Below the pieces are notes generated by a model. That model ran no database searches. It was not told the DNA's origin and was given only the letters and a program-made list of their open reading frames with translations. A program made the translations under genes and the position numbers. Below are positions 24,819 through 32,018 of a DNA stretch of 64,000 bases, piece after piece (positions within the stretch are counted from its first letter, which is position 1; each line of letters starts with the position of its first letter). The stretch is from an uncultured Gemmatimonadales bacterium (GTDB taxonomy: Bacteria > Gemmatimonadota > Gemmatimonadetes > Gemmatimonadales > GWC2-71-9), in contig CAWCFX010000006.1 in assembly GCA_963795085.1 (NCBI GenBank), positions 352,001 to 416,000 on the forward strand. The letters are read 5' to 3'.

Positions 24819-25283
24819 CTAGCGAGCCTGTTCTCCCCCCGACTCCAGGGCCTGGATCAGCGCTTTCATCTCCCCGATTTCCCGGACCTGGGCTGCCACG
24901 ATGTCATCGGCCAGTTTCCGGACCCGCGGGTCGGAGATATGGGCGCGGGTACTGGTCAGGATCGCGATCGAGTGGTGGGGAATCATCGCTTTCATGTACG
25001 AGACGTCTTCCACCGTCTCCTGGCCGCGCACCAGCCAGAGCGCCAGGAAGAATACGAGCGCGCTGCCGGCGATAATGCCGGTATTTATCCGCCGGTCGGT
25101 GTACATCTTCAGCATGAACAGCAGCATGACCGCCGCCATGACCGCGCCCATCAGGAGCGCCATGTAGGCCCGGGTCTCGCTGAAGAAGATATGGTCCGCG
25201 GAGTACGTGTTGAGGTACATCAGGAGAAACATGATGCCGGTGGCGGTGGCGATCATGGCAAAGAAGCGTGGATAGGGCTTCAT
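24819..25283 (-). CDS. DUF305 (CopM-like ferritin fold) membrane protein
   Basis: MIPHHSIAI...Q.REI.EM; Met-rich TM helices. Confidence 0.85.
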   Translation of the reverse strand: MKPYPRFFAMIATATGIMFLLMYLNTYSADHIFFSETRAYMALLMGAVMAAVMLLFMLKMYTDRRINTGIIAGSALVFFLALWLVRGQETVEDVSYMKAMIPHHSIAILTSTRAHISDPRVRKLADDIVAAQVREIGEMKALIQALESGGEQAR

Positions 25284-25455
25284 CGGACATCCTCTCTCGA
25301 AAAGAAGCTTGGCACGGGAGTGATGGTCCACGGCACTGCCGCGCGACGACGGAGCCGCTGGACCGGAATGGCTCCGAAGGGTTCCATCATGCTCAATGGG
25401 GATATCAGAGTCTGTGCCCCGGGGCACACCGCGGCGTGATTTCTGGACCCGGGTA

Positions 25456-26421
25456 CTACCCCACGCGGCCGCCAGGGACGTCAGGGATCCCGGTCGCGCC
25501 GATGCCCTTCCGGCGGAGTTGACCCAGTCCCTTCATGCCGGTGAGCGCGATCCCGATGGCCAGGACCGGCAGGACCTGGACGGCCTGGAGGGCCAGCCCG
25601 GCTGCCAGCGCGGAGGAGAGTGGAATGCCGAACTGTTCCATCACCAGGATCATCGAGCCCTGGAGTACCCCGACATTGCCGGGGGTGAGGCGAAGGAGTC
25701 CCGCGGCGTTGGCCGCGACGAGGGCGCTCAGCGAAATCGAGATATCGACCGGGATATGGGTCGCCGCGATGGTCCAGTGGAATGCCGCCCACTGCAGGAG
25801 CCAGTTGAGGCAGGCCAGCGCGACCGCGGCCACCATCCCGAAGCGATCGGTCGAGGCCACCATTTCGATCAGGGGGCCGCGCCAGCGGCCCAGGTTCCGG
25901 GAGCGAATGCGGTCCCAGGGCAGTCGCCGGTACCCGAGAAACACGGCACCGGTCGCCAGGCCGAGGCCGAGACCGATGAGACTGGCGGCGGGAAACGGCG
26001 GCGCGACGATCAGGGCCGCCGCCAGGAAAACAAACAGCGAGACAATCTCCACGAACCGGGCCAGAATCAGGGACCCGCCCGCCGCGGCCATCGGGACCTC
26101 GTCCCGCACCGCCACCATTTTCGCGCGCGCCACGTCCCCGCTGACGGATACCGAAATGCAGGACAGGGCGGCGCCGACGAAGGTGGCGAATTGGACCGTG
26201 ACCAACCGGACCGGCGCCAGCCGCCGCAGGAACACGTGCCACTCGGCGCCCTTGATTGCCAGGGAGACGAGGTGGGCCAGCGCCGCGGCGGCGAGGAGCA
26301 GCCAGTTCGAGGTTTCCAGGGCGGCCAGCGTCGCGGCCCAGGGAAAACCTATTCCGAAATGGATGGCGAACCCAAGGGCAGCCAGTACCAGGCCCGCCAG
26401 TGCCCAGCGGCGCCAGCTCAC
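25456..26421 (-). CDS. Lysylphosphatidylglycerol synthase TM/flippase-like protein
   Basis: Multi-TM, GDVARA, TPGNVGVLQ. Confidence 0.8.
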   Translation of the reverse strand: MSWRRWALAGLVLAALGFAIHFGIGFPWAATLAALETSNWLLLAAAALAHLVSLAIKGAEWHVFLRRLAPVRLVTVQFATFVGAALSCISVSVSGDVARAKMVAVRDEVPMAAAGGSLILARFVEIVSLFVFLAAALIVAPPFPAASLIGLGLGLATGAVFLGYRRLPWDRIRSRNLGRWRGPLIEMVASTDRFGMVAAVALACLNWLLQWAAFHWTIAATHIPVDISISLSALVAANAAGLLRLTPGNVGVLQGSMILVMEQFGIPLSSALAAGLALQAVQVLPVLAIGIALTGMKGLGQLRRKGIGATGIPDVPGGRVG

Positions 26422-26486
26422 CGGGTCGAACGCAGTATGGAGATAAGCACCCGGGCAAGATAATCTCGCTCGCCCGGAGCCCGCGT

Positions 26487-27794
26487 CTAGTGTTTCATCG
26501 TGGACTCCGCCGGCATCACCCGGAGGTAGAGCGCCAGGCCGGCGGGGGTGCGGGTTCCGTAGGCCGCTTCCAGGGCGGCGGGGATCCGGCTCACCCCGAC
26601 TCTGCCCCCAAGCCCGAAGCTGGCCTGCCCAATCCGTCCGATCTCGCGGAGCATGCCCGCAGAAATGCTGTAGATGTCAAAGCCGTCCGCTCCGGCGCCG
26701 GCGACCTGGAGATCCTCGGCATCCTTCTGTACGAAGCTGGCCCGGCCGAAGATGTTGTACTTCCCGGTGTGGAGGTTGGCCTCGAGCACGGCGCTGTGCT
26801 CGAAGGCGTCCTCACCCGCGTGCCGGTTGGCGCCGTAGATGAGGGATGCCGAGAGATGGCCGGTCCGGGTCGGCTTGACGTGCATGATGGACGCGCCGAT
26901 CCGGTCCTGGGAGACGTCGGGCTCCAGTTCCTCGGGTGACTTGAGAAACCCGTACGAGGCGCTCATCGCCCAGGTGGACGACGGGTTGACCGTCAGCCGG
27001 CCGCCGTAGGAGTCCAGGGGGCGAAAGTCGAAATTGGTGCGTTCTTCGTCCGGCTCCCGGCCGTTGAATACGGTGCCTTCCAGCTTCCAGGTCCGGGTGA
27101 AGACCCCGGCCGTCACGACGCCGAAGGTGATGTGGGTGGCATCCTGCCAGTGGTGCGCCAGGGTGGCCAGCGGGTCCCCTTCCGCGGAGGCGCGGTGCAT
27201 GAACGCGACCGGGCCGATCGCCGGCTCGCCCACCGGCGCCAGGTAGAGCGAGACTCCGAGGTGCTTCGACACCGGCCTTTCGTACATGGCGGCGATTTCC
27301 ATGAACAGATCGTGGGGATGCTGGCGGTCCACCAGCGGGCGCCCCCGGTAGGCTTCGCCGGACTGCAGCAGCAGGGGATAGCCGCTCCCGCCCAGGGTGT
27401 AGGGTTCCAGGCTGAGCATGCCGTGGAGATGCAGCAGCCCGCCGCCCAGCGGGCGCATCGCCATGACCATGCCCCAGTTGGTGCTGCCGACCTGGGTGTC
27501 ACCGCGGGGCCCGCCCTGGTGATTGTAGATCAGGAAGGCCTGCCCGTGGACCATCATGCTCCATTGCCCGGCCATCCAGTGCCAGGCGTTCATCGGCGAG
27601 GCATCGGGGAGCCAGCTGGTGCCGGACCCCATGCGGGTATGGGGAATGCCGAGGGGCCCGTCCAGGCCGGGCATCGGGGTGGCGGTCTCGCCCGCCATGT
27701 TGTGTTGTTCATGCTGCGCCCGCAGGGAGCCGGGCAGACCTCCCAGGAGCAGCAACAGCGCCGCCATGCGGGCGGGCGTTGGTGAGATTTTCAC
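26487..27794 (-). CDS. Uncharacterised Met/His-rich outer-membrane beta-barrel-like protein
   Basis: Signal peptide, QHEQHNM, GSGTSWLPD, DRQHPHDLFMEI, HHWQDATHI, amphipathic strands. Confidence 0.7.
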   Translation of the reverse strand: MKISPTPARMAALLLLLGGLPGSLRAQHEQHNMAGETATPMPGLDGPLGIPHTRMGSGTSWLPDASPMNAWHWMAGQWSMMVHGQAFLIYNHQGGPRGDTQVGSTNWGMVMAMRPLGGGLLHLHGMLSLEPYTLGGSGYPLLLQSGEAYRGRPLVDRQHPHDLFMEIAAMYERPVSKHLGVSLYLAPVGEPAIGPVAFMHRASAEGDPLATLAHHWQDATHITFGVVTAGVFTRTWKLEGTVFNGREPDEERTNFDFRPLDSYGGRLTVNPSSTWAMSASYGFLKSPEELEPDVSQDRIGASIMHVKPTRTGHLSASLIYGANRHAGEDAFEHSAVLEANLHTGKYNIFGRASFVQKDAEDLQVAGAGADGFDIYSISAGMLREIGRIGQASFGLGGRVGVSRIPAALEAAYGTRTPAGLALYLRVMPAESTMKH

Positions 27795-27796
27795 AG

Positions 27797-27848
27797 GACC
27801 CTCCAGACCGAAGTTGAACGAAGAACGCGAGGCTCGATCAGGAGAGTC
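27797..27848 (-). promoter_or_regulatory. Shine-Dalgarno-sequestering stem-loop
   Basis: mRNA GACUCUCCUGAUCGAG pairs at 15 of 16 positions (incl. G-U) with UUCGGUCUGGAGGGUC, which contains the GGAGG of the 27794 start. Confidence 0.7.
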
Positions 27849-28173
27849 GTTGAGGTGGCGGCGAGAGTGGCGGGATATGGTGGGATATCAGCACCCGGAC
27901 CGGTGTGGCAATCCGGGCTGGCCCCGGCAGGGCTGCCGGGGCCGGCGTCGCAGCACCGACGGCGGGGGAGTGCGCGAGACATCCGGCATGGCCGGCGCAT
28001 TCCACCGGCGGACAGTGCTGGCAGTCATCCGGAGCCGGGGCCACCATGCCCTGGCCGGCGCCGGAGTCCGAATGCCCCGAATGGGGCGATGCCGCCTGGA
28101 CACAATGGTCGGCGGCCGCAGCCGGCAAGGGCGGCCACGAAAGGAGGCTCAGCAGGAGCATGACCAGCTTCAT
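27838..28173 (-). CDS. CutF/CruR (DUF2946)-like Cys/His-rich secreted leader protein with Pro-rich C-terminus
   Basis: Signal peptide, CQHC...CAGHAGC, ends IPPLSPPPQRLS; start overlaps the csoR stop. Confidence 0.6.
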   Translation of the reverse strand: MKLVMLLLSLLSWPPLPAAAADHCVQAASPHSGHSDSGAGQGMVAPAPDDCQHCPPVECAGHAGCLAHSPAVGAATPAPAALPGPARIATPVRVLISHHIPPLSPPPQRLS

Positions 28174-28478
28174 CGGGTGTTCTTGTACATCAGGTCCACC
28201 AGCTCGTCATACATCGACTCGGCTTCCTCGTTCCCGACCCGGATGGCCGAGGTGGCGCAGTGCTTGAGATGGTTGCGCAACAACTCCCGGCCGACCGCCC
28301 GGAGCGCTTCCTGGACCGAGCTGATCTGGGTCAGGATGTCGGCGCAGTAGCGGTCCTCCTCTACCATCTTTTGCAGCCCCCGGACCTGGCCTTCGATCCG
28401 GCGCAGCCGCTTCAGATTCCGGTCGCGGAGATCTGGTTCAACGGCGACGGCATGGCGGGGTTCAGGGGTGCTTTTCAT
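28170..28478 (-). CDS. csoR: CsoR-family copper-sensing repressor
   Basis: RLRRIEGQVRG...RYC.DIL.Q...HLKHC (C-H-C ligands). Confidence 0.92.
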   Translation of the reverse strand: MKSTPEPRHAVAVEPDLRDRNLKRLRRIEGQVRGLQKMVEEDRYCADILTQISSVQEALRAVGRELLRNHLKHCATSAIRVGNEEAESMYDELVDLMYKNTR

Positions 28479-28537
28479 GCAACGCCTCCTGGTGCCCATC
28501 AGGAGCGACGGGCGTTGGTAGTGTCCTTGTTCCTCGT

Positions 28538-28825
28538 TCCGAGGCGCCTGCCCCACCCACCCGGTTTGCGCCCATCTCCATCTCGGCGCCTCGAACTTCG
28601 ACGTCCGACGGCGCCTGACGCTCGCACCCGGTTGTGCGCGCGTATCCACCGCGTCGCCTCAACTCTCCGAGGCGCATTAACGCAGAGGGCGCCGGGGAAA
28701 ATCACGAGATCGCAAGGCTACAAAATCATCTTCTGCCATTCTGCGATCTCTCAGTCGGTTCAGCGCTCTCGGCGTTAAGGCGCCTCGGACTTCGACGGTC
28801 CGGTGGTGCCTGACGCACGCACCCC
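28538..28825. repeat. Two tandem palindromic REP/MITE-like units
   Basis: Inverted arms TCCGAGGCGC...GCGCCTCGGA, each followed by a shared tail CTTCGACG...CCTGACGCWCGCACCC. Confidence 0.65.
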
Positions 28826-28836
28826 GAAGAAAAGCA

Positions 28837-31200
28837 TCAAGCCTGGCTCGCCTTCAACCGCCGCAACCGCAGGCTGTTCCCCACCACGCTGACGCTGCTG
28901 AACGCCATTGCGGCGCTGGCCAGAATGGGACTCAGCAGCAGCCCGAACGCAGGGTAGAGGATACCGGCGGCCACCGGGATCCCCACCACGTTGTAGATGA
29001 AGGCCCAGAACAGGTTCTGCTTCATGGTCCGCATGCTGCGCCGGGACAAGTGAATGGCCCGGACCACGCCGGCCACGTCCGGCCGCATCAGGGTGATGTC
29101 GCTCGCCTCCCGCGCGACGTCCGTCCCGCTGCCCATGGCGATCCCCACGTCCGCCTGGGCCAGCGCGGGCCCATCGTTGATACCGTCGCCCACCATCGCC
29201 ACGACCTCGCCCCGCTCCTGGCGACGCTTGATCTCGGCGACTTTGCCCTCCGGCGTGACCCCGGCCACGACCTGCTCCACTCCGGCTTCCCGGGCGATGG
29301 CGCGGGCCGTTCGCTCGTTGTCTCCGGTGACGATGAGGGTCTTGAGCCCGAGCTGCTGGAGGCGGGCAATGGCCTCCCGGCTACCCGGCTTGATGGGGTC
29401 CGCCACCGCGATGAGCGCGGCCAGCGACCCGTTCAGATTGACGTACATGGGAGTCTTCCCCTCATCCGCCAGCCGTTCCCAGTCCGCCCGTGCCTCCTCC
29501 ACGGCGACGCCGTATTCGGCCATCAGGCCGGCGTTTCCCACCGCCATGGCCACACCGGACACGATGCCGGTGGCTCCCTGCCCGGTGACCGAGTTGAAGT
29601 TCTCCGGTTCCGCCAGCGGCAGGCTCCGCTTCTCAGCCTCCGCCACGACGGCGGACGCAAGCGGGTGCTCGGAACGGGATTCCAGCGAGGCGACCAGCTC
29701 GAGCACCCGGTTCTCGGTCCACGCCGCACCACGCACCAGGATATCGGTGACGGCAGGTTTCCCCTCGGTCACCGTCCCGGTCTTGTCCAGCACGACCGTG
29801 GTCAGGGAACCGGCCCGCTGCAGGGCCTCGCCGCCCTTGATCAGGATGCCCCACTGGGCGCCCTTGCCGGTCGCCACCATGACCGCGGTGGGAACGGCCA
29901 GGCCCATCGCGCAGGGACAGGCGATGATGAGTACCGCCACGGCCGCCGCGAACCCGCGCACCAGCGGCGCTGTGGGGTCGAGCAGGTACCACGCGACGAA
30001 CGTCGCGATGGCGATCGAAATCACCACCGGCACGAACACCGCGCTGATCCGGTCGGCCAGGCCCTGGATCGGGGCCCGGCTGCCCTGGGCTTCCCGCATC
30101 AGCTTCACGATCCGCTGGATGGTGCTGTCGGCGCCGAGGGCGACGACCCGGACCTGGAGCGCCCCGGTGCTGTTCATGGTTCCACCCGCGACCCGGTCGC
30201 CCGGACCCTTGGCCACCGGCATGGACTCCCCGCTCAGCATGCTCTCGTCCACGGCGCTGCCGCCGGTGGTCACCTCGCCGTCCACCGGGACCCGTTCACC
30301 CGGGCGGATCACCACCACGTCCTCCAGGCGGACCTCGTCGATCGGCAGATCGCGCTCCTGCCCGTCCCGGATCACCCGGGCCGTCCCCGGCTGCAGCGCG
30401 ATCAGGCCGCGCAGCGCCACCGAGGTCTGCCGCTTGGCCCGGGCTTCCATCGCGTTGCCCACCAGGATGAGGCCGATAATGATCACGATGGCCTCGTAGT
30501 ACACGTCCGGCGGCACCCCATGGGAGAGAAAGAACCCGGGGAAAAAGGTGGCGGCCAGGGAGAAGACAAAGGCCGCCCCGGTTCCCACCGCGATCAGCGT
30601 GTTCATGTCGGCGGCATGATGGCGGAAGGCGTTCCAAGCACGAGTGTAGAAATGCCGGCCGGCCCAGCCCATGATGACCAGCGTGATCGTAAGCAGGACC
30701 CCCAGGAGGACGCTGCGATCCAGCGCGTAGAGCCAGGGAAGGGCCCGCTCCAGCGGTGGAGTCAGGCTGTGCATGGCCCACCGCATGAAGGGGTCGCTGG
30801 TGGCGGCACCGTGCTCGCCGCCCGCCATGAGCGGCATGGAGAAGAGCATGGCGATGGCTGCCGCCACCAGGCTCACCACCGCCTTCAGCCGGTATTCCCG
30901 GAACTCCTCCTGCTGCGCCAGGTCGTGCGCCTCCTGGTCCTCCACCGCGGTCCGGCCTTCGACCGGCAGCTCGGCACCATACCCGGTGGCCTTCACCGCC
31001 TCTACCAGCCGGTCAGGCGAGGTCGTCTCGGGATCAAAGGTGATGGTGGCGTTGGAGGTCATCAGGTTGACCGTCGCGTCCGCGACCCCGGGCGTGCGGA
31101 CCAGCGCCTGCTGCACGTGAGCCTGGCACCCGGCGCAGGTCATCCCGCTGACGGGGAGCGTCACCGTAGCCGGCGGTTTCTTCGTCTCAGTTGGCATCAT
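28837..31200 (-). CDS. copA: Cu(I)-translocating P1B-type ATPase
   Basis: GMTCAGC HMA domain, CPC, DKTGT, SEHPLA, GDGIND, YN and MAFSS motifs. Confidence 0.95.
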
Positions 31201-31578
31201 TCACTCCACGATGAGCTTGCCCCGCAGCATGCTCATGCCACAGGTAAACTCAAAGGTGCCCGGCGTGTCCGGAGTGAACTCAACGGCGGTCTGCTGGTAT
31301 GCCGGGAGAAACTTGCGGATGCCGAAATCGGGGAAAACGATCTCTTCGCTGCAGCTGGACGTTTCCTGGCGGTCAAAGGTCAGCCGAACCGGCTGGCCCT
31401 GCTTCACGCGGATCACGGCGGGATCGTACCCGCCAAGCACGGCAATCGTGGCGCGCTGGATACCGCGGTCCCCCGCCTCGGCAACCGCCGCCTTGCGCCC
31501 CGCCAGGAAGAAGTACCAGTTGACCCACAGAATGGCGGCGGCGCCGCCGATCAGAACCATCCATTGTATCCCTGTCAT
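31201..31578 (-). CDS. Membrane-anchored cupredoxin (CupA-like copper chaperone)
   Basis: N-terminal TM helix, GGYDP, SSCSEE, FTCGMSM. Confidence 0.9.
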   Translation of the reverse strand: MTGIQWMVLIGGAAAILWVNWYFFLAGRKAAVAEAGDRGIQRATIAVLGGYDPAVIRVKQGQPVRLTFDRQETSSCSEEIVFPDFGIRKFLPAYQQTAVEFTPDTPGTFEFTCGMSMLRGKLIVE

Positions 31579-31588
31579 GGCCTGCTCC

Positions 31589-31636
31589 TATACCCTGGTG
31601 GGGTATATACTACGATACCCCCACCCCCTATGTCAA
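31589..31636 (-). promoter_or_regulatory. Copper-operon sigma-70 promoter with two CsoR operator boxes
   Basis: TTGACA-18-TAGTAT on the minus strand; palindrome TATACCCTGGTGGGGTATA (31589-31607) and a second C-tract box at 31615-31631. Confidence 0.8.
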
Positions 31637-31769
31637 GCCCAGCTTCAAGACCCCGGCCCCGCACCCCACCCAGCGTGAGGAGCGTCACTCCGCTCTGCCG
31701 AGGACTCGTGCATTGTCTGGAACAGCAAGCCCGAACTCCAGATGGCCCTCAACCACTTGGCGAGGCTCT

Positions 31770-32018
31770 ATGCCCAGGAAAGACCAGGACGAGAATACTT
31801 CCGCACCCTTTGTCCGGATGGATCCGGAGCAGCGCAGGCAGTTCGAAGAGGGAGGTCCGCTCAAGCACGAGGACGACCGGGTGACCGAAGTGGAGTTCGA
31901 CGCGGATGACCCCCGGGACGAGGACCGCATGGGCCGCCATGCCCAGCCGGAGAGCGAGGAGTTGCGGGAGGAAAAGGCGGCGGAGGTCGATGAGTCGGGG
32001 CCGCCCAGAGAGAGGTAG
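31770..32018 (+). CDS. Hypothetical acidic small protein
   Basis: GAGG RBS, charged 82-aa ORF. Confidence 0.55.
   Translation: MPRKDQDENTSAPFVRMDPEQRRQFEEGGPLKHEDDRVTEVEFDADDPRDEDRMGRHAQPESEELREEKAAEVDESGPPRER

Follow-up and report, generated by a model that had tools for sequence, protein, structure and literature searches.

A putative CutF-type leader ORF precedes a porin-fold outer-membrane protein gene in a Gemmatimonadales copper locus

Introduction

The closest described counterparts of the locus analyzed here are two leader proteins of bacterial copper genes, CutF of Rhodobacter capsulatus and CruR of Bordetella pertussis. CutF is exported and rapidly degraded and has 45 residues from its motif to its proline run (PMC9973294), with a carboxy-terminus reading P109-EPEGPPPRL-118 (bioRxiv 10.1101/2025.02.05.636593). 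CruR (Bp2923), the DUF2946 prototype, heads a copper-uptake operon; its CXXC motif and carboxy-terminal RAPP motif lie ~45 residues apart, and a 162-nt intergenic region, Rho-dependent termination and a stall relieved by copper have been described (PMC9426467). Both the CruR and the CutF papers describe a stretch of constant length and variable sequence that separates a metal-type motif from a carboxy-terminal proline run.

We analyzed a locus within a 64,000-nt stretch of DNA from an uncultured Gemmatimonadales bacterium, hereafter the window, for which an earlier interpretation of the DNA letters and open reading frames (the sequence-only reading) had proposed a CutF/CruR-like leader gating the translation of an outer-membrane protein (OMP). 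Its description of CutF and CruR as secreted Cys-motif leaders with Pro-rich arrest tails, controlling the translation of downstream copper genes, agrees with PMC9973294, PMC9426467 and bioRxiv 10.1101/2025.02.05.636593. The strings 'Gemmatimon' and 'Acidobacter' are absent from the main text and the checked supplements of PMC9973294 (File S1 list excluded) and from the supplements of PMC9426467. A literature search on Gemmatimonadetes, copper, CsoR and outer membrane found no paper.

Results

Organization of the locus

The locus comprises the following features, listed from 5' to 3' of the minus strand.

31607–31636, minus strand: promoter-like site, hexamers TTGACA and TAGTAT separated by 18 nt, on the 5' side of the cupredoxin and copA genes
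31589–31607, minus strand: perfect 7+7 palindrome TATACCC-N5-GGGTATA, abutting the −10 hexamer, read from the sequence
31201–31578, minus strand: cupredoxin-like protein, 125 aa (Pfam Cupredoxin_1, 6e-20)
28837–31200, minus strand: CopA-type P1B ATPase, 787 aa (CAGC at 22, CPC at 428, DKTGT at 472)
28170–28478, minus strand: csoR, 102 aa (Pfam Trns_repr_metal, PF02583, 2.8e-29)
27838–28173, minus strand: CutF-like leader ORF, 111 aa, coordinates including the stop codon (ORF list, alignment, profile search)
28111–28173, minus strand: hydrophobic amino-terminal segment of the leader, residues 1–21, a putative Sec signal peptide, judged by eye
28102–28104, minus strand: C24 codon of the leader, the third invariant Cys (40-member alignment)
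27979–28023, minus strand: Cys/His motif of the leader, C51-x-H-C54-P-x3-C59-x5-C65 (translation, alignment)
27853–27861, minus strand: PPP codons, leader residues 105–107, 4 codons ahead of the stop, invariant in the family
27833–27848, minus strand: hairpin 5' arm (anti-Shine-Dalgarno), the last 2 nt of an Arg codon, the Leu and Ser codons, TGA and 5 nt
27797–27812, minus strand: hairpin 3' arm with the GGAGG Shine-Dalgarno at 27800–27804 (folding)
26487–27794, minus strand: target OMP gene, 435 aa, GTG start, signal peptide, porin fold (translation, AlphaFold2 model)
25456–26421, minus strand: LPG_synthase_TM-family membrane protein gene (Pfam 1.9e-23), 3' of the OMP gene
24819–25427, minus strand: DUF305-domain gene (Pfam 3.9e-10), 3' of the OMP gene

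A promoter scan of positions 26300–31800 revealed no second promoter-like site beyond 31607–31636; likewise, a sigma-70-like promoter was looked for in the spacer between copA and csoR (28479–28836, 358 nt) and none was found. The palindrome TATACCC-N5-GGGTATA, which we take to resemble known CsoR operators, is a candidate CsoR operator, and the unit is probably transcribed under CsoR. The translated CsoR contains Cys45, His70 and Cys74, the Cys-His-Cys Cu(I) ligand set, at a spacing that is presumably that of the ligand pattern of M. tuberculosis CsoR. The copA–csoR spacer is rich in repeats, with a unit of ~27 nt occurring three times (at 28536, 28603 and 28798), direct repeats of 19–37 nt and an inverted repeat of 27 nt with 89% complementarity and 70 nt between its arms (28666–28692 and 28763–28789). 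On the 3' side, the LPG_synthase_TM gene may or may not be part of the same unit as the OMP gene, and neither its product nor the DUF305 protein had a tblastn match in the other OMP loci. An Rfam scan of positions 26000–32000 yielded nothing meaningful, with two sub-threshold sRNA matches at E 0.3–0.4.

The leader ORF

The ATG of the 111-aa ORF overlaps the stop codon of csoR as ATGA, in line with the coupling of the two genes that the sequence-only reading had claimed, and 43 nt separate the ORF from the GTG of the OMP gene at 27794. Its cysteines are located at positions 24, 51, 54, 59 and 65 and its histidines at 23, 31, 34, 53, 62, 68, 98 and 99. The segments HSGHS, CQHC, CAGHAGC and IPPLSPPPQRLS that had been pointed out before are all present in the translation, the last one forming the carboxy-terminus (...IPPLSPPPQRLS), where the tail SPPPQRLS carries the prolines 105–107 followed by QRLS and the stop codon. 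Inspection by eye showed Lys2 at the amino-terminus together with a hydrophobic run and an end rich in Ala, and every row of a 40-leader alignment contains a comparable segment; of the signal peptide claimed earlier, the hydrophobic amino-terminus was thus seen by eye, and its role in export is putative.

The leader ORF alone matched no Pfam or NCBIfam family, and against ~60 related genomes the leader protein gave weak matches at most, the best at 2.8e-4. Two of these weak matches adjoined OMP homologues on their upstream side, and we therefore followed the synteny. A second leader-like ORF is found in the same genome (L108:1483–1833; G000 contig C2:241264–241614, plus strand): it encodes 116 aa with a hydrophobic amino-terminus, a Cys/His motif (...HDCHCIGSC...) and the tail ...LPPATAPPQL, lies 25 nt ahead of a TonB-dependent-receptor-like ORF and matches the leader profile weakly (E 0.11).

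The leader family

We collected 97 OMP-homologue loci, 9 and 11 of them from OMP scans of sequence collections, and examined their upstream regions by script for a small same-strand ORF with a hydrophobic amino-terminus, a Cys motif and a Pro-rich end. Such a leader immediately precedes the OMP homologue in 45 of the 73 genome-search loci with at least 450 nt of upstream sequence, which bears out the expected conservation of the leader next to homologues of 26487–27794, as well as in 3/9 genome-contig and 5/9 metagenome loci, several of which are near-duplicates of each other. The 45 include one locus of an unpublished genome (L051, G095), which was excluded from the alignments and the RNA statistics. 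The starts of leaders and OMPs in other loci are script heuristics, a few leader starts being visibly truncated; tails, spacing and RNA tests are unaffected.

In 28 of the 73 loci the OMP gene has no leader, and the genes upstream are unrelated, encoding for example a substrate-binding, an Ada-like or an ArsR-like protein. Hence the OMP gene often has a leader beside it but is independent of it. In four leaderless loci (L069, L071, L074 and L086) the upstream gene recurs as a periplasmic substrate-binding-type protein of ~283–296 aa (...ILATTTSTRDAGLLDSL...). Acidobacteriota loci contain ORFs ahead of OMP homologues (L004:3292–3837, L009:3236–3682, L006:3532–3891 and L003:3378–3908) that are Cys-rich, with a signal-like amino-terminus and ends reading ...SLRI, ...PLRI or ...ELRV and no PPP run; they may represent a Pro-poor variant of the leader.

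Based on motif and tail, the leaders fall into the following types.

Type A (n=14, window included): motif C-x-H-C-P-x3-C-x5-C; tail TPPPQ plus 3 residues
Type B (n=16): motif C-H-x-D ... C ... C; tail APPLSPPPQA
Type C (n=14): motif C-C-x-A-x3-C; tail PE-x-PPP-K/R-A/V
Other (n=9): various Cys motifs; various tails

Across 40 aligned leaders the mean column identity is 29% and just C24, C59, C65 and P105–P107 are invariant. The CQHC segment occupies residues 51–54 of the window's leader, whereas the family-invariant cysteines are 59 and 65. Counting from the last Cys of the motif to the Pro that opens the terminal run gives a distance of 39–43 for 44 of 53 leaders. Types A and B mostly have exactly 42 and type C has 39 or 40; the value for the window is 40, with 39 residues between C65 and P105 (family mode 41). 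Three more leaders have a shorter value owing to an extra Cys within the spacer, and two of them, recounted by hand, give 42; the distance differs in six leaders of the 'other' class, the Acidobacteriota ones among them.

The same architecture was obtained when a profile of the leader alignment was searched against 1.84 billion representative proteins, yielding 1146 representatives at E<=1e-3, of which 141 reached E<=1e-10. Among the best 150, PPP falls within the last 12 residues in 147; all of these (147/147) have a Cys 38–43 residues upstream of the Pro run, and in 136 of the 147 only 2–4 residues follow PPP. As judged from the sequences, a spacer of fixed length and free sequence between the Cys motif and PPP would suit a nascent-chain sensor better than a folded protein.

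Relation to DUF2946

The search with the DUF2946 model (Pfam PF11162) that had been suggested as a check did not detect the window ORF, either directly at E<=10 or in a six-frame search of the window's genome. At E<=10, 6 of 40 leaders match, all of type C or nearby; the best two score 23.5 bits (L001, type C, positions 6–112) and 22.7 bits, with almost the entire profile covered, and stay below the gathering cut-off of 23.7 bits. Among 151 genomes of this bacterial family, a single one contains a DUF2946 match above the cut-off; the 25 matches listed for these genomes all lie on contigs other than the leader–OMP ones. Types A and C are linked to each other by hhalign, which aligned their profiles at 80.5% probability (E 1.3e-5) over 51 columns extending from the Cys motif to PPP.

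We next compared the window ORF with the operational definition of CutF-like proteins in PMC9973294. With 111 aa the ORF is below the limit of 150 aa, PPP at 105–107 of 111 provides the PP tail, the intergenic distance of 43 nt falls within the definition, and a stem-loop shielding the Shine-Dalgarno (SD) as in CutF is predicted between leader and target. Of the CruR-type pattern, the ORF has a CQHC at 51–54; RAPP is absent, with PPP instead, 4 residues before the end. We file the window leader as one that would work like CutF and as a distant relative of CutF outside Pfam DUF2946, an assignment made at the level of sequence.

The outer-membrane protein

The 435-aa OMP contains 21 His, 21 Met and no Cys, with many invariant His, Asp and Met residues, and matched no Pfam or NCBIfam family. 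It has >7900 database relatives, every one unnamed or hypothetical, the closest sharing 77–79% identity; homologues were found in 10 of the 61 related genomes searched and in 78 of the 401 genomes searched from the same family. Those database relatives of leader and OMP whose lineage is named belong to Gemmatimonadota.

The AlphaFold2 model resulted in a 16-stranded porin barrel (pLDDT 69.9, pTM 0.73). Aligned with VIA-align, the model matched BpsOmp38 best (Z 22.2, rmsd 3.3 Å over 286 residues), followed by Omp32, OprP and PorB, and Foldseek gave E ~1e-7 to OmpF and OprD-type porins. The predicted structure thus has the general, 16-stranded porin fold; the invariant His-rich stretches 157–162, 199–201 and 214–221, with the invariant residues His159, His161, His200, His214, His215 and His221, fall into loops modeled at low confidence. 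In the Atlas, the OMP neighbors are hypothetical clusters; the closest with a name are a 559-aa Verrucomicrobiota cluster with a heavy-metal-binding domain (HMBD, score 0.92) and BBP2 (0.91), leads at most.

In the window, the copper context consists of csoR, copA, the cupredoxin and DUF305 genes. A CopA-like ATPase is present in 21 other OMP loci. It is located downstream on the same strand in 15 of the 54 loci with at least 900 nt past the OMP gene, 7 of them type A, and upstream, as in the window, in L058 and the unpublished L051. The order OMP then same-strand CopA-like ATPase was seen in L019, L030, L041–L043, L045, L048–L050, L052, L054, L059, L060 and L064, three of which (L045, L049 and L064) are leaderless. 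No csoR match was found in the other loci, most of which spanned <1 kb upstream of the leader; the coupling to csoR was thus seen in the window alone.

The Shine-Dalgarno hairpin in the window

Folding confirmed the claimed pairing that buries the GGAGG: the arms 27848–27833 and 27812–27797 pair at 15 of 16 positions, with 12 Watson-Crick pairs, 3 G-U pairs and one U-U mismatch, and the GGAGG (27804–27800) lies 5 nt ahead of the GTG start at 27794. The hairpin is the minimum-free-energy structure in both contexts that were folded. In 61 nt it has −23.8 kcal/mol and a z-score of −3.02, with 0/200 dinucleotide shuffles as good; in 111 nt the values are −26.2 kcal/mol and −1.44, with 17/200 shuffles as good. 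None of 100 versions with a shuffled intergenic region attained the native 14 tail-to-SD pairs, and 9 of 100 versions with synonymously recoded last codons did, so that part of the pairing simply comes from Pro, Leu and Ser codons facing a G-rich SD. With the amino-acid sequence held fixed, the window's stem is not individually significant (0.18 by duplex energy, 0.09 by pair count). A role of the hairpin as a terminator was rejected, as no T-run follows it and a terminator scan lists none at 27797–27848.

The position at which a ribosome halts determines how much of this stem would open. A ribosome with the second Pro codon in its P site reaches ~15 nt downstream by its usual footprint. By this footprint, a ribosome held on PPP would open just the outer 4–5 pairs here and free two of the five SD bases, whereas one at the last codons or the stop would cover the whole 5' arm and open the entire stem. 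The earlier claim that a ribosome stalled on PPP melts the stem would thus hold for the outer 4–5 pairs and fail for the remaining ones.

The helix across relatives

For each relative we folded the segment from 33 nt before the leader end to 6 nt into the OMP gene. In the minimum-free-energy folds of types A, B and C, the last codons and the stop codon of the leader pair with the SD window of the OMP, so that the stem, whose presence in homologous loci had been named as a check, recurs with different sequences in all three types.

For type A (11 intergenic regions), the MAFFT alignment misplaced the 3' arms, so that RNAalifold found no consensus structure; the per-sequence folds, with the stop and start codons as anchors, took the place of this analysis. 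With the stop as anchor, every position from −8 to +4 is paired in 10–12 of the 14 type A sequences, with several pair types per position. At base +1 of the stop codon the pair is G-C in 4 and A-U in 6 of the 14, and at base +2 it is A-U in 4, G-C in 7 and G-U in 1; UGA/UAG switches are compensated in the partner arm. As each fold reports just standard pairs, this table of pair types describes a helix recurring with different sequences and does not amount to a formal statistic of covariation. In type B, a 9-pair core joins the codons of the third Pro, the Gln and the Ala to the SD region, and RNAalifold yielded a 13-pair helix with compensatory changes at 2 pairs. The anti-SD of types B and C lies within the Pro-Gln/Lys-Ala codons, so a PPP-stalled ribosome would open their helix fully.

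Over 45 distinct sequences, the mean number of tail-to-SD pairs is 9.6 for the native sequences, 5.5 after synonymous recoding and 2.7 after shuffling of the intergenic region. The mean duplex energy of these sequences (n=45) is −22.6 kcal/mol for native partners, −20.0 kcal/mol for other members of the same type and −16.3 kcal/mol for partners from other types. Individually, the recoding test gave p<0.05 in 17 of 45 sequences, and one sequence (L091) has zero tail-to-SD pairs. The class-level helix is real; a share of its pairing arises automatically from Pro codons lying opposite a G-rich SD. In type C, 6 of 14 leaders lie >200 nt from the called OMP start, so this type may work differently.

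Discussion

A CutF-type copper-responsive regulatory leader that gates translation of the OMP is the best explanation of the 111-aa ORF, and we consider it fairly probable. The CutF/CruR-like interpretation offered by the sequence-only reading is supported by the recurring sequence features of CutF, and from these and the neighboring genes we infer copper as the ligand, export, stalling and a copper-on direction of control. In such a switch, the leader would be translated after csoR and exported co-translationally by means of its amino-terminal signal, with a Cys/His metal site (C24, C59 and C65) on the nascent chain ~40 residues upstream of PPP. Given this distance, when PPP occupies the peptidyl-transferase center the site would have just emerged from the ribosome or would lie in the translocon. 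Copper bound there would prolong a pause on PPP or on the last codons, and the held ribosome would keep the 5' arm (27848–27833) out of the hairpin, leaving the GGAGG (27804–27800) free for translation of the porin-like OMP; any prolonged pause from PPP to the stop would be expected to expose the SD. Without the pause, the leader would be completed, the hairpin would re-form and the start of the OMP would be masked. As the neighbors are detoxification genes, copper would turn the OMP on, as with CutF.

The small protein could instead function in the periplasm, as a copper-binding partner or a chaperone for the channel, with the hairpin coupling the two translations and setting their ratio and no metal-dependent stalling being involved. 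Its signal-like amino-terminus, three invariant Cys, many His and tight gene pairing with the OMP are what such a partner would have, and since any ribosome reaching the stop codon opens the stem, plain translational coupling would explain the helix. We nevertheless consider this reading rather unlikely: the length from the Cys motif to PPP is fixed (mostly 42) and the sequence between them unconserved, which suits an exit-tunnel spacer better than a folded domain, and PPP lies 2–4 residues from the stop in 136/147 relatives. Moreover, the small protein is lacking from 28 of 73 OMP loci, and CutF itself is exported and rapidly degraded (PMC9973294).

The leader might also respond in the opposite sense, stalling without copper and being relieved by it, so that the downstream gene is switched off, possibly by Rho-dependent termination, and the channel is made at low copper like an importer. 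CruR, a leader of the same broad family that heads a copper-uptake operon (PMC9426467), provides the precedent, the predicted porin fold of the target could serve uptake, and some type C intergenic regions measure 136–708 nt, with 162 nt in CruR. Against this, the 43-nt intergenic region of the window is almost entirely taken up by the SD-masking hairpin, which is the arrangement of CutF, and the RAPP motif is absent; the neighbors are export and detoxification genes (csoR and copA here, and in 15/54 loci a same-strand CopA-like ATPase on the downstream side) and should therefore be copper-induced, all of which leaves a CruR-like response quite improbable. That a chance ORF met a chance hairpin in G+C-rich DNA appears hardly tenable. 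The region does contain many overlapping spurious ORFs, and the z-score of the stem is −1.44 in the 111-nt context, but 53 loci and 147/150 database representatives share the frame, the invariant residues, the spacing and the tail, and the helix recurs with different sequences.

If the CutF-type reading holds, a metal-sensing nascent-peptide switch of the CutF/CruR type would extend to soil phyla, in a sequence branch beyond the Pfam DUF2946 model that comprises at least 1146 clusters at 50% identity. The rules of this leader are unusually clean, with three Cys, PPP, a 42-residue spacer and 2–4 residues before the stop, and could be used to find more. The locus would also provide a first functional handle on a large unnamed family of porin-fold proteins: since gene order ties this family to copper ATPases and copper-type leaders, a copper role is directly testable. 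It is possible, if doubtful, that the 435-aa OMP founds a new widespread class of copper channels in Gemmatimonadota and Acidobacteriota, clearing periplasmic copper together with CopA, and that CsoR and the leader form a two-compartment AND gate. In such a gate, cytoplasmic CsoR would act on transcription and the exported leader, reporting periplasmic copper, on translation, both on one mRNA through the ATGA overlap.

Most likely, what is new here is a leader variant of the CutF/CruR sort with a new target, and what is known is the CutF/CruR switch itself. With CutF of the R. capsulatus cutFOG operon (PMC9973294, PMC8456105), the window shares a small leader, Sec-exported in CutF and putatively so here, that has its Cys motif beyond the signal segment and ends in PPP plus a few residues, ~40–45 residues from motif to Pro run, a short intergenic region with an SD-shielding stem-loop (predicted here) and a context of copper detoxification. 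The CutF tail ...GPPPRL is very close to ...PEAPPPRV of type C and similar to SPPPQRLS of the window. In contrast, the motif of CutF is CxxxC, whereas it is C-x-H-C-P-x3-C-x5-C plus an amino-proximal Cys here, with TPPPQ-x3 as the type A tail. Lineage and target differ from the known examples, as had been stated before: CutF is from Rhodobacter and its target a multicopper oxidase, whereas the present leader is from Gemmatimonadales, with relatives in Acidobacteriota, and precedes a porin-fold outer-membrane protein, its start overlapping the csoR stop codon. CruR has RAPP and a 162-nt intergenic region, in contrast to PPP without Arg-Ala, 43 nt and an SD-masking hairpin here. SecM, VemP and MifM (cited in PMC9973294) are, as the leader here would be, exported nascent chains whose carboxy-terminal arrest keeps a downstream SD-masking helix open; they sense export force and regulate Sec/YidC components, whereas a metal is the proposed signal here.
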